A stretch of DNA of 64,000 nucleotides, taken from IMG/VR virus record IMGVR_UViG_3300029288_000087; one strand, written 5' to 3'. Source of the stretch: an uncultured virus (IMG/VR IMGVR_UViG_3300029288_000087) (lineage: Duplodnaviria > Heunggongvirae > Uroviricota > Caudoviricetes). Below, in pieces: positions 1,978 to 53,953 of the stretch. The notes beneath the pieces are model-generated. The model saw only the letters and a program-made list of their open reading frames with translations. It was not told the origin of the DNA and did not search any database. Each line of letters opens with the position of its first letter. The first letter of the stretch is position 1. Both the position numbers and the translations under genes were made by a program.

Positions 1978-3006
1978 ATGGGACTTTCGCTCGCACAGCT
2001 CAAGATGCGCCGCTCTGGCATCACGGCAACGGACATCTCCGCCATCCTTGGTGAGAACCCCTGGCACAAGCCCATCGACGTGTGGATGGACAAAATGGGC
2101 TACACGCCGCTGGAGAAGCCGGGCGGCGAGCGCGCGGACATGGGCAACGCCTTCGAGTCCGCGGTCGCGCAGTATTACAAGAGGACGCAGTGCCCGACCG
2201 GCAAGCACTGGCGCATCTACAAGCCCACGGTCACCATCCGCAGCAAGCAGTGCGAGTGGGCCCTGGCGACCCCGGACAGGTACGTGTTCGAGAACGATGC
2301 GGGCGTGTCCTTCATCAGCGCCAGTGGCTTGGATGCCATGAGCGGAAAGGCGCACCATCTTCTTGAGGTGAAGCTCGTCGGTCCGAGAGCCATGGACAAG
2401 TGGCTCTTGCGTAATGACGAGCCCGAGGTCGAATGTGACGCGGACCGCCTGCCGACGTACGTCTACTGTCAGGTGCAGTGGCAGATGTTCGTGACGGAGC
2501 ACTACAAGCGGTGCGACGTTGCTGCGCAGCTTGGGGGCACCAGCTTCCGGGTCTTCAATATCGACAGGGACGACGCGTTCCTGGATCATGCCGTCAAGAC
2601 AGCGGAACGCTTCTGGGCCCGCAACGTGGTGGGCAAGGCCACCCCCGAGCCTGACGGCAGCGAGTCGTACAAGGGCTTCCTGAACCAAACCTTCCCGGAT
2701 GCGAAGGTCGTCGATCTCGTGCCCGCTCCAGCAGAAGCGGAGCAGATCGCACGCAGCTACAAGGACGCTTGCGCTCTGAAGGCCGAAGCCGATGAAGATC
2801 GTGAGACGTGCTCGCAGCAGCTCAAGACGATCATCGGCAGCGGCGCGGGCATCGAGGGGTCGTGGGGCAAGGCGACGTGGCTTACCTCGCGCGGGCAGGT
2901 GGACTACAAGAAGCTCTGCGAAGCGCTCAAGGTGCCGCAGGGGACGATCGAGAAGTACAGGGGCACGAACCGGGTTCTTCGCGTCACGATGAAGGGTGAG
3001 AAGTAG
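1978..3006 (+). CDS. YqaJ-like (lambda-exonuclease family) recombination nuclease
   Basis: RRSGITATDISAILGENPW, ATPD, LEVK and QVQWQM motifs. Confidence 0.9.
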   Translation: MGLSLAQLKMRRSGITATDISAILGENPWHKPIDVWMDKMGYTPLEKPGGERADMGNAFESAVAQYYKRTQCPTGKHWRIYKPTVTIRSKQCEWALATPDRYVFENDAGVSFISASGLDAMSGKAHHLLEVKLVGPRAMDKWLLRNDEPEVECDADRLPTYVYCQVQWQMFVTEHYKRCDVAAQLGGTSFRVFNIDRDDAFLDHAVKTAERFWARNVVGKATPEPDGSESYKGFLNQTFPDAKVVDLVPAPAEAEQIARSYKDACALKAEADEDRETCSQQLKTIIGSGAGIEGSWGKATWLTSRGQVDYKKLCEALKVPQGTIEKYRGTNRVLRVTMKGEK

Positions 3007-3714: not shown

Positions 3715-4371
3715 ATGCCGAAGGTTGATACGATCGTCACCAAGTTCACCCAGGAAGAGCTTGCCACTGCGCTGTGCCGCGCCCATCTCGCCTACTTCGG
3801 CGAGACGCCCGCGGATCCGTGCCTTGCCTGCGCATGGGCGCACAACGTGCTGGAGTGCGGCAGGGACGCCCACGGCGTGATCTCCAGCTGCCGGTGTTTC
3901 AACCTGGGCAACATCACCATCGCTGCGAAGGACTACGAGTCCGTCCCCTACTGGCAGATCGTCTGCTCCGAGCAGCAGCGCAACGGCGATGGGTCGCTCA
4001 ACGGCAAGTGGGTCAGCACCGTGATGCGCTTTGCAGCGTTCGACTCGCTGCTGGACGGGGCGATCTTCTACTGGGCGCTTCTTGCGCGTCGGCCTCGCAG
4101 CCTTGCGGCAATGCGGACCGGCGACGGCTACAAGTTCGGCCTAGCCCTTGGGGCCGATCACTACATGACCGCCAACCCTGAGCCATACGCTAGGTCGCTC
4201 GCGTCTCTTGCGCGAGAAGGCGCAGCACTCGTACAGGGCTTGGCAATCCAGGACACCTCTGGTGACGCAGATCGCGCCGGGCAGCTGATGAACATGATCG
4301 CGCTGACTCTGGACGAGTCGGTGCGCGACTTCTTGAATCCACCAAAGGACGAAGGGGAATCTAATACATGA
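3715..4371 (+). CDS. Putative lysozyme-like peptidoglycan hydrolase (GH73/glucosaminidase-like)
   Basis: LECG...FNLGNI...FAAFDSLLDGA...YMTA pattern; RBS GAGGAG before ATG 3715. Confidence 0.5.
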   Translation: MPKVDTIVTKFTQEELATALCRAHLAYFGETPADPCLACAWAHNVLECGRDAHGVISSCRCFNLGNITIAAKDYESVPYWQIVCSEQQRNGDGSLNGKWVSTVMRFAAFDSLLDGAIFYWALLARRPRSLAAMRTGDGYKFGLALGADHYMTANPEPYARSLASLAREGAALVQGLAIQDTSGDADRAGQLMNMIALTLDESVRDFLNPPKDEGESNT

Positions 4372-5243
4372 CCAACGGAAACGTAGAACAGAAGGACTCC
4401 GCCATCACGCTCCTGCGCAAGGACGTGGAATCCCAGATCGAGAGGGCGCGGGCGCTCATCGAGCCTGCGCTGCCGAAGTCGTGTGACTTCAAGCAGCTCG
4501 TTGCCAAGACGCTGGTGGCCATTCAGAGCACGCCCAGCCTCGCGGACACCAACGCCGTCTCGATCTTCTGGTGCTTCGTGCACGCCGCTGAGCTGGGGCT
4601 GTCGCTCGACGTGTCGAGTCAGGAGGCCCACATCATCCCGTTCGAGGACAAGAAGCACGGACGCGGCAAGCGGGCCAAACTCATCACCGGCTACCGCGGC
4701 CTCGTCAAGCTCGCCTTGCAGCATCCGAAGGTGCTCAGTGTCCACGCCAGGGCGGTCTGCGAGAAGGACAAGTTCGAGTACGACGAGGGGTCCACTCCGT
4801 TCGTTGTGCACAAGAGGTTCCTGGGAAGCGATCATCCCGGTGAGGTGATCGCCGCGTATGCGGTCATCAGCCTCCAGAACGGCGGTAGGATCGTCGGTGT
4901 CATGTCCAGGTTCGACGTGGACAAGGTGCGCGCCATGTCCCGCGGGTCGAGCGACCCCGACTCGCCGTGGACGAAGTGGTACGACCAGATGGCGGCGAAG
5001 ACCGTCCTTCGCAACACCCTGAAGCAGAGCCCCAGGTCAGTCGAGGCGGAGAAGGCTCTCGCGCTCGAAGACGCGGCTGAGCAGGGCGTGATCGAGCCCG
5101 GCGAGGAGATCGTCGTGGCCAAGCGCGGCCAGCCAGCCCAGGGACGGGTGAGCAGGATGCGAGGCCGGGTTGCGCAGCAGGCAGAGGCGGAACCGACGAA
5201 CAACGGTCGCGACGAAGAGCCGCCGCCGGATGATCTGCCGTGA
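4368..5243 (+). CDS. recT: RecT-family ssDNA annealing recombinase
   Basis: AELGL, LITGYRGLVKLA, AAYAV and SPWTKWYDQMAAKTVLR motifs; co-located with YqaJ. Confidence 0.9.
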   Translation: MTNGNVEQKDSAITLLRKDVESQIERARALIEPALPKSCDFKQLVAKTLVAIQSTPSLADTNAVSIFWCFVHAAELGLSLDVSSQEAHIIPFEDKKHGRGKRAKLITGYRGLVKLALQHPKVLSVHARAVCEKDKFEYDEGSTPFVVHKRFLGSDHPGEVIAAYAVISLQNGGRIVGVMSRFDVDKVRAMSRGSSDPDSPWTKWYDQMAAKTVLRNTLKQSPRSVEAEKALALEDAAEQGVIEPGEEIVVAKRGQPAQGRVSRMRGRVAQQAEAEPTNNGRDEEPPPDDLP

Positions 5244-5822: not shown

Positions 5823-6347
5823 TCAGAAGCCCATGCGGAAGGGCGAGTTCGGATCACTCTCGTGGCGGATCTCGTCCACATCGCCATCGCGATTCATCCC
5901 CTTGTAAAGCCGGTCTGGGAAGTTCACGACGAGCCCTGGAACCGCGCCCACGTTGCGGTACCCGTGCACGACCCCCGGGGGAACGATCAGCATGCACGGG
6001 TTGGAATCGCCCATCCACAGCTTCATCGACTTGCCGTACGTGGGCGAGCCCTTCCGGTTGTCCCAGAGCATGATCAAGAAGTCTGACGGCCCTGTGAAGC
6101 AGAACATGTCCGTCTGCTCCTTATGCTCATGCGGCCCGCGGTCAACGCCGGGGCCGGTCATGGACAAGTAGCACATGGCAGGAACGGGGATGTTGTCGGA
6201 CGCGAACTTCAGGTTCGCCCACTTCGCGCACCGCTTGATCTCGTCGTGCCTAAGAAGCTCGCACAGCCAGCCCCTATCGTCCGTGTGCTTGCTCAGGATC
6301 GCAAAGTATATACCCTCCAACCAGTTGCCTTCTTTTTTGAGTTCCAC
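5823..6347 (-). CDS. rmlC: dTDP-4-dehydrorhamnose 3,5-epimerase
   Basis: DDRGWL, RGPHEH, DNRKGSPTYG and PPGVVHGY motifs; GTG start after GGAGG. Confidence 0.9.
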   Translation of the reverse strand: MELKKEGNWLEGIYFAILSKHTDDRGWLCELLRHDEIKRCAKWANLKFASDNIPVPAMCYLSMTGPGVDRGPHEHKEQTDMFCFTGPSDFLIMLWDNRKGSPTYGKSMKLWMGDSNPCMLIVPPGVVHGYRNVGAVPGLVVNFPDRLYKGMNRDGDVDEIRHESDPNSPFRMGF

Positions 6348-6349
6348 AA

Positions 6350-7429
6350 CTACCTCCTGCCGCACGTGATGACCGTGTCGTCCCCAACGGTGAGAGACAG
6401 CCCGCTGTGCGCCAGCGTGTCCTTGATGACTACGCGCCTTCCGACCAGAGCATCCTCCAGGCGGGGCACGCCGACAATCCGGCTGTCCTCCATGATGACC
6501 GAGTGCGACACGGTAGACTCGACGACGCACGCTCTGTCGCCAATCGACGTGAATGGGTCAATCCTTGAGTTGCAGATGCTCGCGCCCAAACCGATGATGA
6601 CCGGGCCTCGGATCGTGGAGTTCTGGATAATGGCCCCGTTGCCAACGCGTACGCGGCCCCACAGCTTGCTCTTCTCATCTATGTGCGCCCCTGCGCTACC
6701 AGACTCCAGGAGGCTGTCCAGAACCGTGTCGTTCGCGAGCAGGAGGTCGTCCTTCTTGCCGGTGTCGAGCCACCACGATGTGACCATCGAGTAGCCGACC
6801 TTGCCGCCCATCTCGATCAGCTCCTCGATCGCATCGGTGATCTCCAGCTCGCCTCGCTTCGACGGCTTGATTCGATCGATCGCCTCGAAGATGCGCGCGC
6901 GGAACAAGTAGATCCCCACGAGAGCGAGATTCGAGATGCGCTCCTTCGGCTTCTCGATCAGCTGGACGATCCCGCCATCCTTGTTGAGGACAGCAACGCC
7001 ATACGATGCCGGGTTCGAGACCTCCTTGAGCATGACCGCCGCGTCCACGCCCTTCTGCCATACAAACTCCTGGACCGGAGCAACGATCGACGTGCCGATC
7101 AGGTTGTCTCCAAGGTACATGCAGAAGTCGCTGTCGCCCAGAAACGGCTTCGCCACCAGAACCGCGTGGGCAAGCCCAGCAGGCTGCTCCTGGCGGATGA
7201 ATGTGAACTTCACGCCCCACTTAGTTCCGTCCCCGAGCGCTTGCTGAATCTCAAGCCCGGTCTCGGGCGAGATGATCACCCCGATGTCCCTGACGCTCGC
7301 GCGCGCGAGGCTCTCGATGACGTAGAACAGGATCGGCTTGTTCGCCACGGGCACGAGCTGCTTCGCTCCGCTGTACGTGATCGGACGAAGTCGGGTTCCA
7401 CAACCCCCCGCGAGGACGAGTCCCTTCAC
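6350..7429 (-). CDS. rmlA: Glucose-1-phosphate thymidylyltransferase (long form)
   Basis: KGLVLAGGCGTRLRPIT, KQLVPVANKPI, LGDN and RGELEITD motifs; C-terminal hexapeptide repeats. Confidence 0.95.
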   Translation of the reverse strand: MKGLVLAGGCGTRLRPITYSGAKQLVPVANKPILFYVIESLARASVRDIGVIISPETGLEIQQALGDGTKWGVKFTFIRQEQPAGLAHAVLVAKPFLGDSDFCMYLGDNLIGTSIVAPVQEFVWQKGVDAAVMLKEVSNPASYGVAVLNKDGGIVQLIEKPKERISNLALVGIYLFRARIFEAIDRIKPSKRGELEITDAIEELIEMGGKVGYSMVTSWWLDTGKKDDLLLANDTVLDSLLESGSAGAHIDEKSKLWGRVRVGNGAIIQNSTIRGPVIIGLGASICNSRIDPFTSIGDRACVVESTVSHSVIMEDSRIVGVPRLEDALVGRRVVIKDTLAHSGLSLTVGDDTVITCGRR

Positions 7430-8490
7430 TTCGGCCCCACGCCGAGCCCCAAGCGCTCGCGGTTGTACTTTGCCTTGGCCTTCTCGCACCAGTCCAGGTG
7501 CTCCAGGTACCAGCGGACGGTGTGGCGTATGTCTTTCTCGAAGTCGCGCTTCGGCAACCACCCCGTATGCCTCCACAGCTTCGATGCTTCGATTGCGTAG
7601 CGAAAGTCGTGCCCCGGGCGATCCGTCACGAACCCGATCAGCCTGCGGTATCCGTTCTGGTTCTCTCGTAGCCAGCTGAGCGCGTCGCAGATCGAATGCA
7701 CGACCTGTAGCGTGTTCCGCTCTTGGCTACTACCAATGTTGTAGACCTCCCCAGGCGTCCCATCGGTCGCCACACGTATGAGCGCTTCGCAGTGGTCGTC
7801 CACATGGATCCAGTCACGCACGTTCATGCCGTTGCCGTAGACCGGGATGGGCTTGCCCTCGATGGCGTTCAAGATCGTGAGCGGGATGAGCTTCTCGGGG
7901 AACTGGTAGGGGCCGTAGTTGTTCGAGCAGTGCGTGATGATCGTCGGCATCCCGTAGGTCTTGTTGTACGCGCGCACGAGGTGGTCCGACGCGGCCTTCG
8001 TCGCTGCGTAGGGTGAGTTGGGAGCATACGGGCTGTTCTCGGTGAACTTCGCGTCATCCATCCCAAGCGACCCGTAGACTTCATCGGTGGAGACGTGGAT
8101 GAATCGGCACGAGCCTGAGCAGCCGCTGCCGCTGCTCCAGTAGTCCTTCACGGCGTTGAGCATCCTCGCTGTGCCCGCAACGTTGGTTGACACGAACGGC
8201 ATGACCCCGTCGATGGATCGGTCCACGTGGGTTTCAGCGGCGAGGTGGAACACGACCGTGGGCTTGAACCACGCAATCTCGTTGTAGAGATTGCCGGTCC
8301 TGATGTCCAGATCCGCAAACTCGAACCGAGGATCTTCAGCCACGTCGGCGAGGTTCTCCATGCTGCCCGCGTAGGTAAGCGCGTCAATGATGTACACGCT
8401 GACCTCGGGCTCCTTGAGCAGCATGCGCACAAGGTTCGATCCGATGAAGCCTGCGCCACCCGTTATGACGTACCTCTTTTCGCCGCTCAC
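7426..8490 (-). CDS. rmlB: dTDP-glucose 4,6-dehydratase
   Basis: TGGAGFIGS, AAETHVDRSI, STDEVYG, YAATK and NNYGPYQFPEKLIP motifs. Confidence 0.97.
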   Translation of the reverse strand: MSGEKRYVITGGAGFIGSNLVRMLLKEPEVSVYIIDALTYAGSMENLADVAEDPRFEFADLDIRTGNLYNEIAWFKPTVVFHLAAETHVDRSIDGVMPFVSTNVAGTARMLNAVKDYWSSGSGCSGSCRFIHVSTDEVYGSLGMDDAKFTENSPYAPNSPYAATKAASDHLVRAYNKTYGMPTIITHCSNNYGPYQFPEKLIPLTILNAIEGKPIPVYGNGMNVRDWIHVDDHCEALIRVATDGTPGEVYNIGSSQERNTLQVVHSICDALSWLRENQNGYRRLIGFVTDRPGHDFRYAIEASKLWRHTGWLPKRDFEKDIRHTVRWYLEHLDWCEKAKAKYNRERLGLGVGPK

Positions 8491-8861
8491 TTTCCCGGCT
8501 CCCGCTCCCTGGCCTCCGCCGAGATGTTGAAGCGCTGCTCGTACTCGCGACACTTCTTCAGCAGCCGCGTGTTCTCGTTCTTGTACCAGCTGATCTTGTC
8601 CTGCATTGCCCAGTACCGTGAGGCGTACCAGCCCATCTTCTTGCTCAGCGGCGCGAGCACCTTGTACAGCACGTCCACGTCTCCCTTGGAGAGCTTGCCA
8701 AGGAGCACACCCGCAAGCAGAGCCTCCTTGGAGGCCTGCACATCGGCCCCATCCTGCTGGTCAGTGTAGCCAGCTGGCGGGGCCTCTGGGTACTCGTCCG
8801 GGAGACGCGCGGCCCGGTCAAGGTCGGCGGTCTCCACCACAGCTTTCTTCTTTTCAGTCAT
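8487..8861 (-). CDS. Hypothetical protein
   Basis: MTEKKKAVV...; RBS GGAGG; stop overlaps rmlB start. Confidence 0.7.
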   Translation of the reverse strand: MTEKKKAVVETADLDRAARLPDEYPEAPPAGYTDQQDGADVQASKEALLAGVLLGKLSKGDVDVLYKVLAPLSKKMGWYASRYWAMQDKISWYKNENTRLLKKCREYEQRFNISAEAREREPGK

Positions 8862-9243
8862 CGCTTCCTCCGTCTCCCTCCGGAACATCGCCCCCGAGCT
8901 GATCTCGAATCGCCTGCGTAACGACCTCGAACGGCACCACCTGCTTGGGCCGGAAGTTGTACCGAGTGATTCGCTTGCCGTCGATCTCCTCGATCGAGGA
9001 TCGGATCTCGCCCACAACGTGGACCCACATCCCCTTGCGCAGCCTGTCGGCCATCTTCACGGCGAAGTCCCCGAACCACGCGAACGTCACCCAGGTCGTG
9101 TCCTCCTCCCACTTGTCGTTCTTCAAGTAGGGGATGTTCGCGGCAGCAACGACCTGGAGCCGCTTCTGCCCGTTTAGAAGCGTCTTCATCGACGGATCTT
9201 TGGCGATCCGCCCGAGAAATGTGAACGTTGCGATTCCGCGCAT
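8854..9243 (-). CDS. ssb: Single-stranded DNA-binding protein
   Basis: FLGRIAKDP...WEEDTTWV...LRKGMWVHVVGEIR; acidic tail; RBS GAGGAG. Confidence 0.85.
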   Translation of the reverse strand: MRGIATFTFLGRIAKDPSMKTLLNGQKRLQVVAAANIPYLKNDKWEEDTTWVTFAWFGDFAVKMADRLRKGMWVHVVGEIRSSIEEIDGKRITRYNFRPKQVVPFEVVTQAIRDQLGGDVPEGDGGSDD

Positions 9244-18527: not shown

Positions 18528-19346
18528 CTACGCCTTCGCCGGTTCTTCCGGAGACGCCTCCGCCACAAGCTCCTCGTCCTTCTCGAAAGGGTTCTTCCCC
18601 TCGAACATCCGCCTGAGCTGCTTGTGTCGGAGAAAGACAAGCTGCGAAAAATCCTTCGAGTCGTCTTCCAGCTCGATACGGAAGCACGGGCACGGGACAT
18701 CCTTGCGCGCCCTTGCGGCCACCGTCTCTCCCCAGTGTTCGCTCAGCTGCGAAGGCTCGATGGTTTCGATCCACTCCATCTTGTAGAGCTTCGTTCCGAT
18801 GACCACGCTCACCCACGCGCCTATCTGCTGCGGAAAATGGACATAACCGTGCAGCGGCACGATGCTCATGGGAGCTTGGTACGGTATCCCATCGTCGTCC
18901 TTCGGTTCCACGATCATGAGAGCGCGCCTAACGGCACCCTCTTCGTCGAGCGGCCCATCGAGAAGCAGCCGAATTTCATGATCGCAGAAGTTCACAAACA
19001 CGACGGCTTTGACGGTATCGGGTAGCCACTGGAGAAGCGCGTGTCGCTCATCAACCGGGTTGTCCCTGTGCGACTCCTTCGCCGGTTCTTCAGCAGCCGC
19101 TCCGTACCTTCGCTCCTCTGTCTCACAAGGGCACGGGAACACCACGGCGTCGAACGCCTCGCTTGCCTGAAGCCATGCCGACAGCCTGTGGCGGGTCCTT
19201 CTGTCGAGCTTGCCGATGGTGCGCATGATGTCGAACTCGTCCAGAATGATCGTGGCCCGACGCTCCTCCGCAGACCCTGGCATGTCCTCTGTGGGGATCG
19301 AAATGGTTTCTTCGGCAGGCCCATCGAAAATACCGTTGCCCATCAC
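18528..19346 (-). CDS. Hypothetical protein
   Basis: 272-aa ORF in operon; RBS AGGAG. Confidence 0.75.
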   Translation of the reverse strand: MMGNGIFDGPAEETISIPTEDMPGSAEERRATIILDEFDIMRTIGKLDRRTRHRLSAWLQASEAFDAVVFPCPCETEERRYGAAAEEPAKESHRDNPVDERHALLQWLPDTVKAVVFVNFCDHEIRLLLDGPLDEEGAVRRALMIVEPKDDDGIPYQAPMSIVPLHGYVHFPQQIGAWVSVVIGTKLYKMEWIETIEPSQLSEHWGETVAARARKDVPCPCFRIELEDDSKDFSQLVFLRHKQLRRMFEGKNPFEKDEELVAEASPEEPAKA

Positions 19347-21758
19347 CTACTCCTTAGCCGGCTCTTCCGGAGCCGCCTCCGCCTCGGGCTCCTTCTGCTG
19401 CTTGGCGATGAATTCCGCCTGCACCTTCATGAGCACGCGCCACACGTCGTCCAGGTAGCGCTTGCCCTTGCCGGTTGCCAGGACAGTCCCGCTGGTCGCC
19501 GGGTCACTGCGCAGGCTCGCGACAAACCTGTCCTTCTCGATGACCTGGGGAATCATCACGACGGTGCTCTCGCCGTTCTGCTCGATGAATGTCTTGACCA
19601 ACACCTCGGGCGGCACCCTGTGAGAGCACGCCTCCTTGATCGTATTCACGAGCCCAGCAACCTGCTCGCGGTTGATCCCTGGGATCCAGTCGAACGAGGA
19701 CCACGGCTCCTTCTTCGGCGCGACGTTCTGCTTGGCCGCGGGCTGCGACACGGGGGTGTCTGCCGCAACGGCCTGAGCCGCCGTCACAGGCCCCTGCGGA
19801 GCCTGTTCGATGACCACTGGCGGCGGGTACTGGGGCTGCTGCACGGGCTGCTGCGGGGCCTGCCGCATCGGCTGCTGCGTGATGGACGGCTGCGTCATCG
19901 GGTTGAACGGGACCGGAGGCATGCCGGGACTGCGCGACGACATGCGGTTGTGCTCGTCTGCGCTCACCTGCGGCCCCGGCAGGTTGTCGAACGAAGACTG
20001 CACGGCTGGCCCCTCGCTGTCGGCGAACTGCACCCGGTGCACACGCCTGGGCGGAGGCAGCATCTGACGAGCCTGCTGCACGGGAGGCACCTGCTGCACC
20101 TGCACCTGCTGCACAGGAGGACTACCCTTCTGGAGCAAGTCCTTGATCTGTGGGATCAGCGTGTCGGCCTGGGAGATGGCCATGAGGATGGCCTTCTGAT
20201 ACCAAGGCGCGTTCGCCGCAGCCGCCGCCATCGCGGCCTCTTCTGGAGTCGGCCCGCCTTCCTTCTCGTCTGTCGCGATCCCGAGCGCAACGGCGGTCTC
20301 CCGAAGCTCCTGCACCTTGTTCAGAAGCGGCTTGTTCTGCTCCGCGAGGTGGGCGTTGACGAGCTGCGCCTTGCTCTGGAGATCCGCCACCGTCGCGGCA
20401 AGCTGGTTCTGAAGCGCGCGCACCTCGAATCCGTGCGCCGCATCGAGCGTCGTCTTGGTGTTCGTCTCGACCGCCTCGCGCATACGCGTTTCGCGATCGT
20501 GACTGCGCTGGATGTCGTCGAGCCGCTGTTGCCCGATGCGCTGCGCTTCTTCCATCGACCGCTTGTGCTCTTCGCGAAGGTAGCGCTCACGCCGATCGAA
20601 GTCGTCCTTCAGCTCGCGCTCCCGGCGTTCGATGATCGTATCCTTGTCGCGCATGCGATCTTCAAGTGAAGCAACACGGGTCTGCATCTCGGACCGAACG
20701 CGCTCGACCTCGCGCTCCTTCTCTCTCTTCTCGATCTCGATCAGCCGCTCGAACTCCCGCTGCCTCATCTCCATCTCGCGTGCGTGCTGCTCCTGCACCG
20801 CGCGCATGTCATCGGAGTTCGCCCCGCCGCGCACCGACGAGTTGATCAGCGCAACGGCCTTGACCATCTCGACCATGTCGTTGGGCTTCTGGCCGATCTC
20901 GGCGATCTGCCTGCGCATCTCCATCATCTCGGCTTGCTTGGCTTCGAGCTGACGTTCCAGAAGCGCAACTTGCTGCTGCGCCATCTCCTTGGTCGAGTCG
21001 ATCGCGCGCTCCTGCTGACGACCCATCACGCTGAAGACCGTATCGGGCAAGCCCTGCTGAGCCTGCTGCGGCCTGTTTGCCATGCGCTCTGCGAAGCTCA
21101 GAAATGGCGCGTAGTCTTGCGGCTGCTGTTGCTGCGGCATCTGCATGCGCATGCCCGCGCCTCCGTAGGGGCTGCCACCACCCGGGAACGTGAACACCAT
21201 AGGTCCCTCACTACTCTCGCTGTCTGCGATCGGAAGGCTCTGCATGTTGGGATCGACAGGTACGGAGAACTCCGCAACGGCAACATCCACCAGCGCGGGA
21301 GGCCCGCCCATGTTCGAGCTGTCACCTTGCTCCATCACGCCGTAGACCCGGTACTTGTACCCGCCGTAGAGCCGCAAGAACTCCTGCGTGCCGATCATCA
21401 TGTTGTGCATGCCGACGATACCGGAAACGCGCTGGCGCTGCCCCGTGCCGGGATCGAGATGCCACTCGGGCTCGATGCGCTGTACGCGCAGCTTGCCGAC
21501 CTTCCGGAGATCCGGGTACGCGCTGTACATCGTCTCAAGAGATGGGAACTTCGGCACGTTCATGCCGCCGCGGCGACGGCTGATCTCGGCACGCCGCTCG
21601 ACATCCTCCATCGGCGCGCGCGACTCGGGAAGCGATCCCATGTCGATCCCGCCCATCGGATCGTACGAAGTAGCAGCAGGACCGCCTGATCGACGGCGCG
21701 CGGGGAACGGGAGTTCGGGCAGCGGCTGTTCTTCAGCCGTCGTGGGTTCGTCGGCCAT
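19347..21758 (-). CDS. Large (803 aa) coiled-coil, Gln/Pro-rich protein
   Basis: Long E/R-rich coiled coil; PQ-rich linkers; RBS GAGGT. Confidence 0.85.
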   Translation of the reverse strand: MADEPTTAEEQPLPELPFPARRRSGGPAATSYDPMGGIDMGSLPESRAPMEDVERRAEISRRRGGMNVPKFPSLETMYSAYPDLRKVGKLRVQRIEPEWHLDPGTGQRQRVSGIVGMHNMMIGTQEFLRLYGGYKYRVYGVMEQGDSSNMGGPPALVDVAVAEFSVPVDPNMQSLPIADSESSEGPMVFTFPGGGSPYGGAGMRMQMPQQQQPQDYAPFLSFAERMANRPQQAQQGLPDTVFSVMGRQQERAIDSTKEMAQQQVALLERQLEAKQAEMMEMRRQIAEIGQKPNDMVEMVKAVALINSSVRGGANSDDMRAVQEQHAREMEMRQREFERLIEIEKREKEREVERVRSEMQTRVASLEDRMRDKDTIIERRERELKDDFDRRERYLREEHKRSMEEAQRIGQQRLDDIQRSHDRETRMREAVETNTKTTLDAAHGFEVRALQNQLAATVADLQSKAQLVNAHLAEQNKPLLNKVQELRETAVALGIATDEKEGGPTPEEAAMAAAAANAPWYQKAILMAISQADTLIPQIKDLLQKGSPPVQQVQVQQVPPVQQARQMLPPPRRVHRVQFADSEGPAVQSSFDNLPGPQVSADEHNRMSSRSPGMPPVPFNPMTQPSITQQPMRQAPQQPVQQPQYPPPVVIEQAPQGPVTAAQAVAADTPVSQPAAKQNVAPKKEPWSSFDWIPGINREQVAGLVNTIKEACSHRVPPEVLVKTFIEQNGESTVVMIPQVIEKDRFVASLRSDPATSGTVLATGKGKRYLDDVWRVLMKVQAEFIAKQQKEPEAEAAPEEPAKE

Positions 21759-21772
21759 GAGCTACCTCACCT

Positions 21773-21883
21773 GTCGCAGACATCGGCCTGTACGCCGTTG
21801 GTTTTGATAGCTCATCGAGCTTGGCGAATCCGTCATCGAAGCCGTGTTGCAGATATCGGCCTGCGCGCCATTGGTTTCGATCG
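21773..21883 (-). CRISPR. CRISPR-like mini-array 1 (repeat, 35-nt spacer, repeat)
   Basis: Repeats 21773-21810 and 21846-21883 (73-bp period). Spacer 21811-21845 matches 21960-21994 inverted at 30/35. Confidence 0.7.
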
Positions 21884-21910
21884 CTACGGGATCGTCGGCC
21901 ATGATCCACC

Positions 21911-22363
21911 TCAGTTTGGTTCAGGCTCGTCGGGCTCTTCTTCGATGACGAGATCCTTGACACCCTCGATGACAGATTCACCAAGCTCGATGAGATCGGC
22001 GAGCTGCGCAGCGATCGGAAGCCCCTGCTTCTTGGACTCCGCATGCTGCGCCTTGAAAATCTCAACGGCCTTCTCGACGAAGGCGAGGATCTTGTCGGCG
22101 TCTTCCTGTTCGAGCTGGCTCGCGCCTTCGGCCTCTTCGAGATCCGCGATCGCGTCTTCGTGGCGCACAACGGCGGCGGCGCACACTCGCACGTCTTCGG
22201 CCAGCATCTTGAGGTTCGGCAGAAGATCATCCTGGATGAAGTCGTGCAGATCGCGAGACCCCTCGTCGGTCTTCACGTCGTTGTCGATCTTCTTCGCGAG
22301 CTTGTCGAGATTCTCCAGCACCATGTCGATCTTCAGCACATCGCCTTCGGTCTCGTCACTCAT
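21911..22363 (-). CDS. Acidic helical hypothetical protein; its 3' end holds the protospacer of array 1
   Basis: 150-aa ORF with RBS GAGGT. Confidence 0.8.
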   Translation of the reverse strand: MSDETEGDVLKIDMVLENLDKLAKKIDNDVKTDEGSRDLHDFIQDDLLPNLKMLAEDVRVCAAAVVRHEDAIADLEEAEGASQLEQEDADKILAFVEKAVEIFKAQHAESKKQGLPIAAQLADLIELGESVIEGVKDLVIEEEPDEPEPN

Positions 22364-23003
22364 CGGTCACCTCTTGGAACTCATCCTTGTCGAGAACCTT
22401 CTTGCCCGCTTCCACATCTTCCTTCGTCTTGAACATGCGGTAGCCCTTGATCTTGCGCGGAGCCTCGCGATCGCCAGAGCCCGCGCCCTCGACGATGACG
22501 CGCGCCTTGCCGATCTCGATCTTCTCCGCGTCGATCGCGTCCAGCACGTTCGTCGCCGCGGGATCAGGCGGATCGCGGAACTCGCAATCGAAGATGGCCG
22601 AGTCCTTCAGACACATCGCTGCGCCATTGATACCGCGAAGCGCTTCGACGGTGCAGAACCGCTCGATGAGCGCAAGGTCGGGAATGTCCGGGCTGATCAC
22701 GCGCTGCCTCTTGTAGAAGCGGCACTTACCGAGCCGGGTCAACCGGCCCTTCTTTGGATCTGGCTCTTGTTCCAGACACGAGAACGTTTGCGGGCACAGC
22801 GGAGGAGGAAGTGCCTGAGAGAAGGTCCACGGCGGATCCTTCTCGATCGGCATACCGTCCGGTCCGTCTCGGTACTCGGGCTGCGCAGGCCGGAATTGCT
22901 CGAAGATGCTGCCGCCGGGAGTCGGGCTTCCGGTTTCAGTCTCCTCTTCGTCGGCTTGTTCTGCTAGTGTCTCGTCCTGTTCGATCGTGGGGTCATCAGC
23001 CAT
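22356..23003 (-). CDS. Hypothetical Cys-containing protein
   Basis: MADDPT...; leaderless after the promoter at 23011-23039. Confidence 0.8.
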   Translation of the reverse strand: MADDPTIEQDETLAEQADEEETETGSPTPGGSIFEQFRPAQPEYRDGPDGMPIEKDPPWTFSQALPPPLCPQTFSCLEQEPDPKKGRLTRLGKCRFYKRQRVISPDIPDLALIERFCTVEALRGINGAAMCLKDSAIFDCEFRDPPDPAATNVLDAIDAEKIEIGKARVIVEGAGSGDREAPRKIKGYRMFKTKEDVEAGKKVLDKDEFQEVTDE

Positions 23004-23010
23004 GACGCAC

Positions 23011-23039
23011 GTTGTCGCAGGAAACGCACAGCGTGTCAA
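23011..23039 (-). promoter_or_regulatory. Sigma70-type promoter overlapped by the protospacer of array 2
   Basis: TTGACA-17-GACAAC-7-ATG. Confidence 0.6.
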
Positions 23040-23045
23040 CGACGA

Positions 23046-23372
23046 TTAGGGGGTGCCTGTTTTCCCGGAGGTTGCGGATATCGGCCCGCACGCCGTTGGT
23101 TGATCGCCATGATCCTCGTTGATACGTCGCACGATACCTGCGAGTTGCGGATATCGGCCCGCACGCCGTTGGTTCTTGAGGCGCAGTATCCTCTTCGGGC
23201 GATAGCCGCAGCACAGATCGCACACGAGGAACGAGGGTTCCTTCACGGTCGAGCCCTTCAGATAGGGACCAGCGTAGAGCGTGGGGACGACGCGCCCGCA
23301 CCACATGCACGGGCGATCGGGCACAACGTCGAAAGGTTCCCACTGCACGGGGATTTTGGGCCAGTGGCTCAT
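23046..23372 (-). CDS. Small Zn-finger-like protein whose 3' end runs through mini-array 2
   Basis: CMWC...CDLC; promoter TTGCCA-17-TACCAT at 23411-23383. Confidence 0.55.
   Translation of the reverse strand: MSHWPKIPVQWEPFDVVPDRPCMWCGRVVPTLYAGPYLKGSTVKEPSFLVCDLCCGYRPKRILRLKNQRRAGRYPQLAGIVRRINEDHGDQPTACGPISATSGKTGTP
23071..23181 (-). CRISPR. CRISPR-like mini-array 2 (repeat, 37-nt spacer, repeat)
   Basis: Identical 31-bp cores at 23071 and 23144 (73-bp period). Spacer 23107-23143 matches 23015-23051 inverted at 27/37. Confidence 0.7.
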
Positions 23373-23552
23373 GATGGGCCAGATGGTATCGCAGGGTCGT
23401 ATAGTTGGCAAGGGGATGTGATGACAAATAGAGGACGCGCGGCACCAAGTGAGGGGGGGAGGACTCGGTCTGCCGCGCGCCAGATTTCGGCCCAAGGTCG
23501 CGATGCGTCTTCGTGGGCCTGAACGGTAGGGTATGCGCAACGGCCCCGCCCG

Positions 23553-23759
23553 TCAACTGTCGTCCACTTCCCACGTCCGAACAATGGTGCTGCCGCAGGG
23601 GCAGTCCCGGTACTCCATCGCTTCGCCCCAGTCGAATACCGTGTAGCCGACCAAGTGGAGCTTCTGCCACTGGGCTTCGGTGTAGAGCTTGCCGCACGGG
23701 CACCGCTTGGGCATCGGGTCCAGGAGCTTGCCGAGGCGGATTGCGGGTGTCGTTGCCAT
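23553..23759 (-). CDS. Small CPCG...CPCG Zn-ribbon protein
   Basis: Two CPCG motifs. Confidence 0.65.
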   Translation of the reverse strand: MATTPAIRLGKLLDPMPKRCPCGKLYTEAQWQKLHLVGYTVFDWGEAMEYRDCPCGSTIVRTWEVDDS

Positions 23760-23765
23760 CTTCGA

Positions 23766-24338
23766 TCAGCCAAAGCGTCCGAGCGAGAACCCGGCTGTCC
23801 CCGCACGACGCCCCTCCGCGATGTCGGCAAGCGAGCAGAACCCCAGAAATCTCGTATCTACGCGGTGATCCGGGACTCGTTTGACAACCGCTCCGCGCTC
23901 CTGCGCGACCTCCGGGCTTGTCACGTCCACGTCGCCGTTCTGCGCGCCAATGCACGCTGCTCGCCCTTCGGGCGGGTACCACTTCTCGACCAGCATGATG
24001 TGGACGGCCTTCTGTGCGCTTCCGAAGAGGGCAACGTCCCCTGGGGTGGGCTCCACAACCTGCGGAAGAGCATGCCAGATCGCGTTCGAGTTCATCTCCA
24101 TCTCGAACCCGGCAGCGCGCGCGCAGTCGATGATGAGCCCCGAGCAGTCCAGGCCCCACGAGCTTACGCCCGCGTGCCCTCCGCCCCACTGGTAGAGCGT
24201 CCCAGCCTTCACATGCTCATCGGCGCGAGCAAGCATTGCCTTGCGCCACGGGGCCAGATTGGAGGCTCCCACGCGGCTCGCGTACACGATCGCTACGATG
24301 GCTGCGATGCCGAGAGCCCACGGAAGCGCGGGGTTCAT
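23766..24338 (-). CDS. NlpC/P60 peptidoglycan endopeptidase with N-terminal TM
   Basis: YQWGG...GLDCSGL...PGDVALFG...HIML. Confidence 0.88.
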   Translation of the reverse strand: MNPALPWALGIAAIVAIVYASRVGASNLAPWRKAMLARADEHVKAGTLYQWGGGHAGVSSWGLDCSGLIIDCARAAGFEMEMNSNAIWHALPQVVEPTPGDVALFGSAQKAVHIMLVEKWYPPEGRAACIGAQNGDVDVTSPEVAQERGAVVKRVPDHRVDTRFLGFCSLADIAEGRRAGTAGFSLGRFG

Positions 24339-24625
24339 CCTTGTCTTCCGCCTAGATACAAGTTCATGTCGCCGTGCTCACCGTGCAGCCGGTACGGCAT
24401 CTTGCCCTCCGCGATGAGCTTCATCCTCCAGATCGCCAACCACAGCAGCACGCCGACGAAGCCGACGACGACTACGCCCACAATGGCCTTGGTCGCCGTG
24501 GAGGTCTCCTTCGCGCAACGGGGCTGGCCGTTCAGGTAGTACAAGGACTGCCCGGGTGGGCAGCTGGCCTGGGCGACCGTAGGCGGGTCCGCGCTGAGAG
24601 AGTGGGGGCGGGTAACCTGGATCAT
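24335..24625 (-). CDS. Small membrane protein
   Basis: CPPG...C module plus TM; leaderless TAGGAT. Confidence 0.7.
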   Translation of the reverse strand: MIQVTRPHSLSADPPTVAQASCPPGQSLYYLNGQPRCAKETSTATKAIVGVVVVGFVGVLLWLAIWRMKLIAEGKMPYRLHGEHGDMNLYLGGRQG

Positions 24626-24648
24626 GCTGCCATCCTACCTCAACCGTC

Positions 24649-25086
24649 TCAAGCCACCAACTTGAGCCGCGCCCTGAACAGCCGGTTCTTGGTGGTCGAG
24701 TCGTTGGCCGCATCGGTCCCAAGCACGGCATCGACGATGGCGCTCCGATCCACAACGGGCATGGCGTCAACCTGCTTCAACACGCTAAGCAGTCTCGCCC
24801 GCGCCTCGATGAGGCTGTCGATGGTGCAGCTGGTCTCGAACTCGGGGACCACAACGGCGGCATGTCGGCAGCGGTCCCGCTTCACTTCGAGGCACTTCAT
24901 GATGACGATGTGGTGCAGCCACGTGCTGACCTTGCACCTGCCATCGAAGGGAGCCGTGAGCGCCTTGATGAACGCCCACTGCACAATGTCCTCCGCATCC
25001 TCGCGGCTGGCCATGATGCGCTGCGCGGCAGCGACGAGCCGCGCCCGGTGCGCCCTGCATTCCCGATCCAACGCCTGCCTGTCCAT
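24649..25086 (-). CDS. ECF-type RNA polymerase sigma factor
   Basis: EDAEDIVQWAFIKA...FDGRCKVSTWLHHI (region 2); TKNRLFRARLKL (region 4 end). Confidence 0.8.
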   Translation of the reverse strand: MDRQALDRECRAHRARLVAAAQRIMASREDAEDIVQWAFIKALTAPFDGRCKVSTWLHHIVIMKCLEVKRDRCRHAAVVVPEFETSCTIDSLIEARARLLSVLKQVDAMPVVDRSAIVDAVLGTDAANDSTTKNRLFRARLKLVA

Positions 25087-25631
25087 CGGACAACCGATGG
25101 TAAGCACGCGCCGCGCCGCTTGCAAGAGTCGCCGCGCGCATGGATACATGATCGAGCGTTCCGACGTTCCTACGATCCATATCCTCTCATACGAGGTCGC
25201 GTCAGCGTTGTGGTAAATGCAAGCTCAACCCAAGCGCCTTCCGATCTCGCAGGCGAGGATCATGCTTTAGCGTTCTGGGTGAAGCAGAGGCTTCGATCCA
25301 ACCATCCCGCTGAAGCGGCGTCCTCCCCTTCCGATGCCATCCTCTCGGAACGAGGATACACATATCACCAACTGATCCAGATCCCGATTCGAGGAAACAC
25401 CTCGGTCTCATCCAAACGTTCGTACCCTACGGGCACTCACTGGGAACACGAAGCGTTATGGCGAATCGGGAAATACGCCACGACGTAAGGTAGATCCCTA
25501 TTAGGCCAGAAAATGGATGGGGTCCACAAGTGAAAAGTGAACGTAGCGTGCCACGATTTCAAAATAGGTAGCATAATGTGAGCGCTATACACACAAAGCG
25601 CGCGACGGATTGGTTGATAGCTGGAAGCGTT

Positions 25632-46804: not shown

Positions 46805-47533
46805 ATGCCGCGCTACCTCCCCATCCGTTCGCCCTTCTACGCGCAGTTCGAGCGCTGGCCGTACACGCGCGGGCCGAACTACACGCGGGCGATGTTCCGC
46901 GAGCAGGGGCCGGGCGGGTACTTCACGGCGCAGCCGATGAACCGGATGCCACCGCTTCTGGGGCTCGGGTACGTGGGGACGGGGGAGACTCCTGAGAACT
47001 GCACGAAGATTTGCACCGATGGGTGTGGGTCGCTCGACAAGGACTGCTTCAACGGCTGCTACAGCCAGTGTATGGGCATTTCGGTCCCTGTGACCCCCGA
47101 CAACAAGAGGGAAGGCGAGACCATCGACTGCAACGCCGCGTGTGCTGGGAAGACCGGAGAGGCGCTCTCCAGGTGCGTGTTCGATTGCGGCACCGGACGC
47201 GCTGTACCGAAGTCTGCGCAGGCCGGTTTCTTCGCGGACTTCTGGTCGAGCCCGGTCAAGATGGTCGGCACGCTCGCCGTTGTGGGCGGGCTGCTGTGGT
47301 GGGTGACGAGCAGGAAGCGAGCGACGGCGAACCCTACGAAGCTCCGCGCTGGGGACACGGTTTATTTTCTGAGCGGGGAAAGAGAAGGGAAGCTCGCTCG
47401 CGTATCGAAGCGGTGGAAGGACAAAAACGGGCACGTTTGGGTGATCTTGAGGGAGCGCGAACCGGGCGCTTGGCAATGGCGCGCGCGCGAAAGGGATGTT
47501 CTCCGGTACGCGGTGAGCGTAGCAACTTTCTGA
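46805..47533 (+). CDS. GLG, Cys-rich, TM and ANP motifs plus a small beta domain
   Basis: LLGLG; CxxxC repeats; RKRATANPTKLRAGDTV. Confidence 0.8.
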   Translation: MPRYLPIRSPFYAQFERWPYTRGPNYTRAMFREQGPGGYFTAQPMNRMPPLLGLGYVGTGETPENCTKICTDGCGSLDKDCFNGCYSQCMGISVPVTPDNKREGETIDCNAACAGKTGEALSRCVFDCGTGRAVPKSAQAGFFADFWSSPVKMVGTLAVVGGLLWWVTSRKRATANPTKLRAGDTVYFLSGEREGKLARVSKRWKDKNGHVWVILREREPGAWQWRARERDVLRYAVSVATF

Positions 47534-53811: not shown

Positions 53812-53841
53812 TTGACACCGTTGCGGATCTTGCCGTAGACT
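53812..53841 (+). promoter_or_regulatory. Promoter upstream of the core/capsid operon
   Basis: TTGACA-18-TAGACT. Confidence 0.6.
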
Positions 53842-53913
53842 GCCTCTCACGTAGCAAGAGCCTCGTTGGCCCAGGGTGACGAGTTCAGCTCCCGCGAACT
53901 GAGCGGAGTTGTA

Positions 53914-53944
53914 TTCCAACGGCGTGCAGGCCGATATCTGCAAT
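53914..53944 (+). repeat. Solo fifth copy of the mini-array repeat
   Basis: CCAACGGCGTGCAGGCCGATATCTGCAA, 26/28 identical to the array-2 core. Confidence 0.85.
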
Positions 53945-53953
53945 CATCACCCG

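Follow-up and report, generated by a model that had tools for sequence, protein, structure and literature searches.

What would a virus gain from short CRISPR cassettes whose spacers nearly, and only nearly, match its own DNA next door? The question is raised by a 64,000-nucleotide (nt) stretch from an uncultured virus of the Caudoviricetes (IMG/VR record IMGVR_UViG_3300029288_000087). This whole stretch, which we call the window, makes up the opening 64 kb of a contig of 134 kb (C3 of bin G000) and holds mostly genes without an assigned function. A first-pass annotation, made from the DNA letters alone, described in it two cassettes of one spacer each, both directed at a diverged copy of the locus beside them. 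The answer that we favour, and consider probable, is that these cassettes are virus-borne mini-CRISPR arrays of a compact type V family, accompanied by a solitary repeat at 53909-53944, and that their guides are aimed at the alleles of rivals.

Repeats, spacers and their neighbouring near-copies

A repeat search returned a repeat of about 31 to 36 nt in four direct copies (21772-21812, 21845-21885, 23070-23110 and 23143-23183) whose starts are 73, 1225 and 73 nt apart. The copies form two units, each built of a 36-nt repeat, a 37-nt spacer and a second 36-nt repeat, which is the layout of a CRISPR array. Two repeat-spacer-repeat units of 73-nt period had been reported in the first-pass annotation, and the repeat search and an exact 31-nt core on the minus strand (23071-23101 and 23144-23174; matched in 0 of 100 shuffles of the window) agree with it. 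Both repeat copies of mini-array 1 (21773-21808 and 21846-21881) are diverged. A fifth, solitary copy at 53909-53944 comes on top of those in the first-pass annotation. All five repeat copies of the 3.57-Mb bin fall in this window, each in sense with the local genes and ahead of a start codon. The elements are as follows.

23144..23179, minus strand: repeat A, which opens mini-array 2 (36 nt long; core conserved at 23144-23174)
23107..23143, minus strand: spacer 2 (37 nt), matching the plus strand at 23015-23051 in 27 of 37 positions
23071..23106, minus strand: repeat B, the terminal repeat of mini-array 2, with an exact core
23012..23051, plus strand: near-cognate self target 2 (23015-51) with 5'-TTG (23012-14), non-coding and just upstream of the ATG at 23005
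21846..21881, minus strand: repeat C, the first repeat of mini-array 1 (from the repeat search and copy alignment)
21809..21845, minus strand: spacer 1 (37 nt; matched part 21811-21845), matching the plus strand at 21960-21994 in 30 of 35 positions
21773..21808, minus strand: repeat D, the terminal and most diverged repeat of mini-array 1, ending 14 nt before the ATG of an 803-amino-acid (aa) gene
21957..21994, plus strand: near-cognate self target 1 (21960-94) with 5'-TTG (21957-59), inside the 3' end of a 150-aa gene
53909..53944, plus strand: solitary repeat E, whose end is 9 nt short of the start codon (ATG, 53954) of a strongly basic 810-aa protein
53812..53841, plus strand: promoter-like site of the sigma-70 kind (10 of 12), some 68 nt ahead of repeat E; one was found against a shuffle mean of 0.0

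Re-alignment gave the same scores for the two spacers as had been reported (30/35 and 27/37), with the match starting at the 3' end of the repeat and TTG standing in front of each target. Both alignments begin at spacer base 1, directly after the repeat. Each target is an inverted near-copy of its spacer, at a distance of 114 or 129 nt; spacer 1 and its target were also returned by the repeat search as a 29-nt inverted repeat of 93% identity. Within 300 nt on either side, none of 5000 shuffled versions of either spacer reached the observed score, and among 3000 random 35-mers from the window a neighbour with at least 27 matching positions was found for 6 and one with at least 30 for 1. Both window spacer matches are beyond chance. 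As has been described for viral mini-arrays, the carrier's own locus is mutated relative to each spacer, with 5 mismatches for spacer 1 and 10 for spacer 2.

The repeat in other phages and its TnpB-like nuclease

Motif scanning of viral contigs located near-identical copies of the repeat elsewhere (G001, G002, G003 and G006 among them), and a sister repeat occurs on C12, a phage contig in the window's bin. In G002 the window-type repeat stands 10 times at a period of 71 to 75 nt, separated by unique spacers, in an array about 40 nt past the stop codon of a 434-aa open reading frame (ORF). The encoded protein matches Cas12f1-like_TNB (4e-18), HTH_OrfB_IS605 and OrfB_IS605 (Pfam PF07282, PF12323 and PF01385). 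Its nearest natural relative among solved structures is ISDra2 TnpB (about 9e-11), the overall top match is an RNA-guided nuclease designed by artificial intelligence (6e-13), and no solved Cas12 chain outscored TnpB. Because the same repeat forms this array behind a type V nuclease, the repeat of the window is a genuine CRISPR repeat. A homologue of the effector at 46% identity is present in G003, preceded by a repeat-spacer-repeat unit and followed by a repeat-spacer-repeat-spacer-repeat unit. These two contigs uphold what the first-pass annotation had read from the repeat-then-guide order and the T-rich 5' flank, namely a fit to type V, which it had named next to some type I systems.

The third carrier, C12, is a phage: it encodes a terminase, a portal, a major head protein and a tape measure, as well as baseplate and DNA polymerase proteins. 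Its 39%-identical effector homologue (6496-7866, plus strand) is followed by a 15-repeat array (about 7846-8870) of the sister repeat, which has the layout of the window repeat (ACCAAC box, 5-bp hairpin, terminal AC) with a hairpin of different sequence; the C12 effector uses a different hairpin from that of the window repeat. Five solitary sister repeats end at 1939 (plus strand) and at 47327, 46174, 43901 and 26795 (minus strand). Two spacer pairs of the C12 array are duplicated, and several of its spacers are short (19-26 nt). All three effector carriers found are phages, and neither the repeat nor the effector was seen in 92 other genomes of the host phylum; the first-pass annotation's reference to mini-arrays that borrow host Cas therefore calls for a change.

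The effectors of G002, G003 and C12 are 434 to 496 aa long. In an alignment of 18 effector homologues, D260, E342 and D417 and four cysteines are invariant, and we read the first three as the RuvC triad. On that reading a D-E-D RuvC triad split in three, with a TNB/zinc-ribbon region, the mark of a type V effector, is present in these three proteins, none of which is encoded in the window. Judged by sequence, the effector of the family is predicted to be this TnpB-like RuvC nuclease of 434 to 496 aa carried by other phages. In the protein collection the clade amounts to 103 clusters (E<=1e-20), nearly all on one or two contigs and with one to three member sequences, which their sources name only 'transposase' or 'hypothetical'. 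A search of IMG/VR with the effector alignment, in which 79 distinct loci were kept of 505 confirmed stretches, gave full-length matches (42-100%) only in G002 and G003; the others were set aside as generic TnpBs (24-33% identity, nearly all in the C-terminal half only). A scan for trans-activating CRISPR RNA duplexes around the three effector genes returned as top matches only the opposite strands of the arrays themselves.

The repeat also has a conserved structure. A 5-bp helix (columns 17-21 and 30-34) ends two bases before the spacer, and across 27 distinct copies 97.8% of helix cells are paired, against at most 49% in slid controls. At two helix pairs both partners are replaced (A-U by G-C in 6 copies, G-C by U-A in 1), and pairing or covariation at the observed level came up in none of 500 shuffles. 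The folding energies of single repeats are not unusual. The alignment holds 27 of the 28 distinct window-type 36-mers, the excluded one being a G002 variant that differs only at its 5' end; seven C12-type repeats were kept out because of their different hairpin, and rows L069, L079 and L083, which have no upstream box, were dropped as likely chance matches (two pair via G-U and one has an A-C mismatch).

Our initial idea had been that the repeat is not a CRISPR element and serves either as a promoter for the Sigma70_r2 protein (24649-25149) or as an RNA processing or stability hairpin ahead of genes. The in-sense placement of five copies before start codons would suit this idea, as would the sigma-like gene 1.5 kb upstream and the lack of an Rfam family (no match at gathering thresholds in the whole window, and chance-level matches only at E<=10 in 21600-23400). 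The hairpin loop presumably resembles a sigma-28/sigma-D -10 box as well. The idea was abandoned on the evidence of G002, in which 10 repeats alternate with unique spacers beside a Cas12f1-like gene, and we regard it as extremely improbable; no conserved -35/-10 spacing could be fitted, and near-identical repeats in phages with almost no common proteins argue against it too. The window and G001, for instance, give 2 BLASTP matches at E<=1e-5, the better of which is a helicase at 27% identity. Near-identical repeats across phages with so little gene overlap suggest a common effector pool that several phages draw on or defend against. The sigma-like protein, 166 aa long and encoded on the minus strand, matches Sigma-70 region 2 only and heads the minus-strand operon; its sequence makes it a possible phage sigma factor.

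Isolated copies such as repeat E bring in a further alternative, in which the repeats, and repeat E above all, are RNA anti-CRISPR decoys that soak up the type V effector of a rival phage or of the host, and the spacer matches are leftovers. Repeat E has the features of a solitary repeat unit: it is a single phage-borne copy with no cas gene nearby, about 68 nt after a promoter-like site, like the viral solitary repeat units (Racr) described in the available part of PMC10651486. G001, which is 90% complete by CheckV, has 4 solitary copies and no effector, and G006 has four tandem copies at 37 nt. As an account of the whole locus we hold the decoy to be very improbable, since it leaves unexplained two next-door spacer matches that run from base 1 with a shared TTG flank, and likewise the codon pattern described below. 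Repeat E alone may be a decoy alongside the explanation that we favour. It differs from Racr in that it ends 9 nt before a start codon, which points to an mRNA leader and not to a separate small-RNA gene, and in that the mimicked system is phage-borne here.

The four G006 repeats (54615-54751) run head to tail with no room for spacers and could be a tandem decoy or a collapsed array. On L071, a 221-kb IMG/VR contig, the repeat directly follows a sequence like the 3' end of a tRNA (T-arm-like). Terminal and solitary repeats end 8 to 45 nt before a Shine-Dalgarno site and ATG in the window (21773-21758 and 53944-53954), in the G003 locus (L124; 4181 and 2461) and in L077 and L086. The downstream mRNA leaders would start with or contain the repeat hairpin, and short intergenic gaps alone may explain this placement.

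Codon and position pattern of the mismatches

The differences between the spacers and their near-copies bear on the case for guides against rival alleles. Spacer 1 differs from the 150-aa gene at 5 positions, 4 of which are third codon positions, and the changes affect three synonymous codons and one Gly/Ala codon. In G002 the last spacer has its near-copy 202 nt away, in the start region of the following gene (34 of 39 positions, flank TTC), and all 5 differences are synonymous. The first spacer of C12 matches the phage's own effector gene, 229 nt away, at 30 of 35 positions, and again 5/5 differences are synonymous third positions. Taken together, the three coding cases (window, G002 and C12) have 15 differences, of which 14 are synonymous in position, and spacer bases 1-12 hold 11 of the 15 mismatches (binomial P = 0.002). 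Spacer 3 of C12 (26/35; target 1.9 kb away) encodes a diverged homologue of the gene that immediately precedes the effector; 3 residues in 12 differ, and these amino acid changes imply that the spacer came from a relative and not from the carrier. In spacer 2 of the window the mismatches stand at positions 8, 10, 13, 14, 16, 17, 21, 29, 33 and 35 and bases 1-7 all match, its target being non-coding and more diverged than target 1.

This pattern, as far as alignments can tell, fits guides directed against rival alleles with the carrier copy recoded. The first-pass annotation had proposed that the guides come from the orthologous locus of a sister virus, and the third-position and synonymous differences of spacer 1 (4/5), G002 (5/5) and C12 (5/5) speak for an allele of the neighbouring locus, indirectly. 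Such mismatches would result from spacers derived from relatives or from escape of the carrier gene under self-targeting, and either origin implies an active effector in the cells where the phage grows. The candidate protospacer-adjacent motif (PAM) flanks, TTG and TTG in the window and TTC in G002, are consistent with a 5' PAM, a 5' handle and a 3' guide.

The mechanism that we favour runs as follows. The mini-array units lie in a minus-strand operon and would be co-transcribed with it. Going by the architecture, each unit would yield a CRISPR RNA (crRNA) with a 5' repeat handle ending in the 5-bp hairpin, followed by a 3' guide. The window encodes no effector, and one would be supplied in trans by a co-resident phage, a prophage or the host. 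The guides would target the alleles that closely related phages have of the DNA adjoining the cassette, read with a 5'-TT(G/C) flank, and the carrier copy would escape through its differences, which are mainly PAM-proximal and, where coding, synonymous. Linkage of the guide to the immune allele would keep recombinants from cutting themselves, and a cut rival repaired from the carrier would tend to gain both.

Partial guides could also serve self-regulation, in which crRNA-like RNAs let an effector bind the phage's own DNA or mRNA uncut and so tune the neighbouring genes. Regulatory crRNA-like RNAs from mini-arrays are described in the accessible portions of two reports (10.1101/2023.03.03.530964 and 10.1101/2024.10.29.618823). 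Target 2 would suit such a role, being non-coding, directly before the ATG at 23005, with the TTG kept and spacer bases 1-7 perfectly matched. Spacer 1 is antisense to the mRNA of the 150-aa gene, and 4 of its 5 mismatches become G-U pairs. Type V binding starts at the PAM-proximal bases, and it is there that the mismatches to coding targets cluster (11 of 15 in 12 bases), which is contrary to a regulatory match limited to the seed. Escape or allelic divergence predicts the synonymous-only differences of three unrelated phages, whereas regulation needs none; target 1, at the 3' end of its gene, is a poor site for repression, and the effector family is predicted to retain its catalytic triad. 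We judge self-regulation improbable. Regulatory RNAs of the CreA/CreR type resemble the cassettes, in the descriptions at hand, in their repeat-pseudospacer-repeat form, partial adjacent match and kept PAM. The match in that type is to cas or toxin promoters and is kept at the PAM-proximal end, whereas the coding targets here are mismatched at that end.

Several observations weigh against the explanation that we favour, and they fall into two groups. The first concerns the guides. The candidate PAM comes from three flanks only, and two C12 flanks are TGC and TGG. Near-neighbour targets were found for 2 of 2 spacers in the window, 1 of 10 in G002, 2 of 13 distinct spacers in C12, 0 of 4 in G003 (where the 6.3-kb locus only was covered) and 0 of 4 in G001, and guides without a local match reach at best 20-25 of 35 anywhere in their own contig. 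The G-U wobbles that spacer 1 would form in an RNA duplex are compatible with an RNA-RNA role. No perfect protospacer was found, and a scan of metagenome contigs with the degenerate target-1 peptide gave 0 matches. The spacer-encoded peptide, LIELGESVIEAV (the carrier has ...EGV), is present exactly in none of the three relatives of the 150-aa protein, and P0007, P0008 and P0009 differ from it at two to three positions each. A blastn search of the phage collection with 19300-25200 gave no match at E<=1e-5.

The second group concerns the effector and its host. No cognate effector was found on the 134-kb C3: its only TNB-domain match (125423-125620, E = 3.7e-13) lies outside the window in a divergent TnpB-like ORF (125324-127018, minus strand) that is without the usual zinc-ribbon cysteines, has no repeat or array beside it and gave no match in the effector search at E<=10. 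Within the window, the absence of a visible cas gene that the first-pass annotation had stated is not contradicted by Pfam and PHROGs scans of 84 ORFs, which found none. No array of the window-type repeat was found elsewhere in the bin, with 0 further copies outside the window's contig. Neither this repeat nor a close effector homologue was found in the 92 other host-phylum genomes, although arrays assemble poorly in metagenome bins. A search of species-representative genomes with the 20-nt core, which leaves the G002 loop variant uncovered, gave 54 matches, all single and with no more than 6 of 10 bases of the upstream part; on our reading they sit in coding sequence.

Protein relatives of the locus exist, at 65% and 62% identity to the 803-aa protein and at 89%, 70% and 69% to the 150-aa protein, and among the viral contigs no relatives of either protein were found. 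Metagenome contigs scanned with the alignment of 150-aa homologues yielded 595 pattern matches and 0 confirmed relatives, and among 22 genomes of the same order, its own included, the DNA of the locus matched its own genome only.

Neighbouring genes, possible homing and known systems

The genes and duplications around the cassettes are listed here.

21911..22363, minus strand: 150-aa gene without an assigned function that holds target 1 (ORF with high GC content at third codon positions; homologues at 89%, 70% and 69%)
19347..21758, minus strand: 803-aa gene directly downstream of mini-array 1, with no family or nuclease match
22356..23005, minus strand: gene downstream of mini-array 2, with its ATG at 23005
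23046..23540, minus strand: small Cys-rich ORF whose frame runs through both repeats of mini-array 2 (from the ORF list and sequence; part lies in the piece 23046..23372)
21744..21769, no strand assigned: direct repeat D3a, covering the start of the 803-aa gene (Shine-Dalgarno site, ATG, first codons), 88% identical to 21888-21913 and recovered a second time at 26/35
21888..21913, no strand assigned: direct repeat D3b, in which a stop, a Shine-Dalgarno site and an ATG stand a second time, on the far side of cassette 1; it opens a 46-aa ORF across the cassette

Both cassettes thus lie inside open reading frames, cassette 1 in the 46-aa frame and cassette 2 in the Cys-rich ORF, and cassette 1 is flanked by the 26-nt direct repeat (Shine-Dalgarno site, ATG and four codons; 21744-21769 and 21888-21913). 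The 46-aa ORF (21762-21902, minus strand) is in frame with the 803-aa gene, and one TAG and one codon stand between them. In C12, a second occurrence of the 24 bases that follow a solitary repeat lies 104 nt farther upstream, in the same orientation (1836-1859 and 1941-1964, 23/24). This recurrence resembles the 26-nt duplication at cassette 1 and may be a mark of how the units insert.

Such a duplication bears on RNA-guided homing, which the first-pass annotation had put forward. It goes further than the explanation that we favour, in that each cassette would serve above all to spread itself. Here the guide would cut, beside the insertion point, a rival allele that has no cassette, and repair by the YqaJ/RecE-like exonuclease and RecT would copy in the cassette together with the recoded allele. 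The cassettes themselves would then be homing units, each a one-guide array joined to a recoded, immune copy of its target, with the nuclease coming from another phage and the sensitive allele sitting in co-infecting relatives. We hold the mechanism to be possible but on balance unlikely, and the description of the cassettes as homing units is in our view equally doubtful. The targets lie close to the window spacers, at 114 and 129 nt, and adjacency recurs in G002 (202 nt) and C12 (229 nt and 1.9 kb); the phage encodes both YqaJ (1978-3006) and RecT (4368-5243), and cassettes set within open reading frames, with a 26-nt duplication round cassette 1, look as they might after recent insertion. 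The proximity of targets is left without explanation in the available text on viral mini-arrays (PMC6858448), and TnpB relatives are reported, in the accessible part of PMC10705468, to aid their own spread by cleavage and homologous recombination. Linkage of a weapon to its immunity allele, on the other hand, accounts for the adjacency without any drive; repair by homologous recombination itself yields no 26-nt flanking duplication, and most spacers in the long arrays of G002 and C12 have no neighbouring target.

Sequencing runs gave no cassette-less allele, and a search of them for RNA gave no RNA run. Joints without the cassette were not seen in four DNA runs, which cover the parts of the cassettes poorly except in the sample that is the likely source; the flanking genes are partly covered in X3 and X4 and the cassettes not at all, which decides neither way. 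Among the contigs of these runs (at least 80% likeness), those of a second sample, X2, show cassette 1 (21771-21921) unchanged.

We take the contig to be that of a large phage, on the basis of predicted YqaJ, RecT, primase, helicase and NlpC/P60 proteins and of a window protein that resembles the head spike fibre of gene transfer agents. The recognizable genes of the window are the YqaJ/RecE-like exonuclease, RecT, a 3'-5' exonuclease, an AEP primase, helicases, the Sigma70_r2 protein, NlpC/P60 and sugar-nucleotide enzymes, the last encoded at 5823-8553 on the minus strand (a nucleotidyl transferase, an NAD-dependent dehydratase/epimerase and a dTDP-sugar epimerase-like protein). A sequence search of solved structures gave no nuclease relative for three large window ORFs without an assigned family, and a tRNA scan of the window found none. 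The 810-aa protein directly behind repeat E (53954-56386, plus strand) has Lys/Arg-rich runs followed by a hydrophobic, Gly-rich tail and matches no family. At 3.57 Mb, bin G000 is larger than the genus's other genome (1.8 Mb), and it holds at least two phage contigs (C3, 134 kb; C12, 50 kb); many TnpB-like genes lie on its contigs C2, C16 and C36. Its mixed content makes a host assignment from the bin unsafe.

Among known systems, viral mini-arrays come closest to the reading of guides against rival alleles. Faure et al. in 2019 reportedly described virus-borne mini-CRISPR arrays in conflicts between viruses. In the available text of Medvedeva et al. 2019 (PMC6858448), mini-array viruses are described as protected from self-targeting by point mutations or deletions in their loci orthologous to the targets, and the targets lie close to the array for a reason that this text does not explain. 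In the published cases the spacers relate to genes of close viral relatives. The same pattern as here is thus described in other viruses, in what is accessible of PMC6858448 and PMC11656645. Our cassettes resemble those of PMC6858448, as far as its available text goes, in having one or two spacers in a virus genome, no adjoining cas gene, a mutated own locus and near targets. They differ in that the published repeats are host CRISPR repeats according to the same text (PMC6858448), whereas here the effector is phage-carried and no host array with an identical repeat was found in the bin, in the 92 genomes or among the 54 single matches. They differ also in type, being TnpB-like type V, and in that no matching rival genomes were found for them in the searches made. 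The archaeal (SPV) mini-array cases reportedly use type I.

Comparable effectors have also been described. Compact phage type V effectors beside arrays, described as TnpB-like, V-U and Cas14-like, are reported from landfill viromes in the accessible part of PMC12607003, and Cas12 hacker/Cas12p is given as 500-700 aa with a GTN PAM in the portion seen of a bioRxiv preprint (10.1101/2025.01.20.633832). Like both, as described there, the effectors here are phage RuvC nucleases of TnpB size beside CRISPR arrays. They differ from Cas12 hacker, so described, in length (434-496 aa) and in their TT(G/C) flanks and do not fall within it; no molecule of that name was among the 19 solved sequences matched at E<=0.01. 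Their nearest sequence relatives are the TnpBs of IS200/IS605, with which they have a 5' T-rich flank in common. Meers et al. in 2023 reportedly treated TnpB with the omega-RNA of IS200/IS605 elements. A guide that lies beside its target is a further likeness, and spread by cutting and recombination is reported for TnpB relatives in the accessible part of PMC10705468. The difference lies in arrays with unique spacers in place of a single guide, and in homologue clusters that are nearly all confined to one or two contigs.

The feature is real and belongs to a known class, the viral mini-arrays used between viruses. It is set apart by a phage-borne effector of TnpB size, by repeats common to unrelated phages but not found in hosts, and by a clear recoding signature. 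The window locus and two further phages sharpen the picture of mini-arrays in a different CRISPR type, because the neighbouring target is retained and yet recoded at synonymous and PAM-proximal positions. They also point to a clade of TnpB-sized nucleases, found only in phage contigs here and carrying no database label other than 'transposase', whose effector-plus-repeat pairs are candidates for very small genome-editing nucleases. Homing is, on our analysis, a reasonable but hypothetical extension. Literature searches, which were limited, found no paper proposing it for viral mini-arrays, and the available part of a game-theory paper (PMC7099407) makes no mention of proximity, linkage or homing. 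Should guide and immune allele be linked as a rule, the closeness of spacer and target becomes a testable weapon-antidote model, possibly with gene conversion. Homing, if true, would make these cassettes a CRISPR analogue of a homing endonuclease gene and would explain the adjacency of spacer and target in viral mini-arrays.

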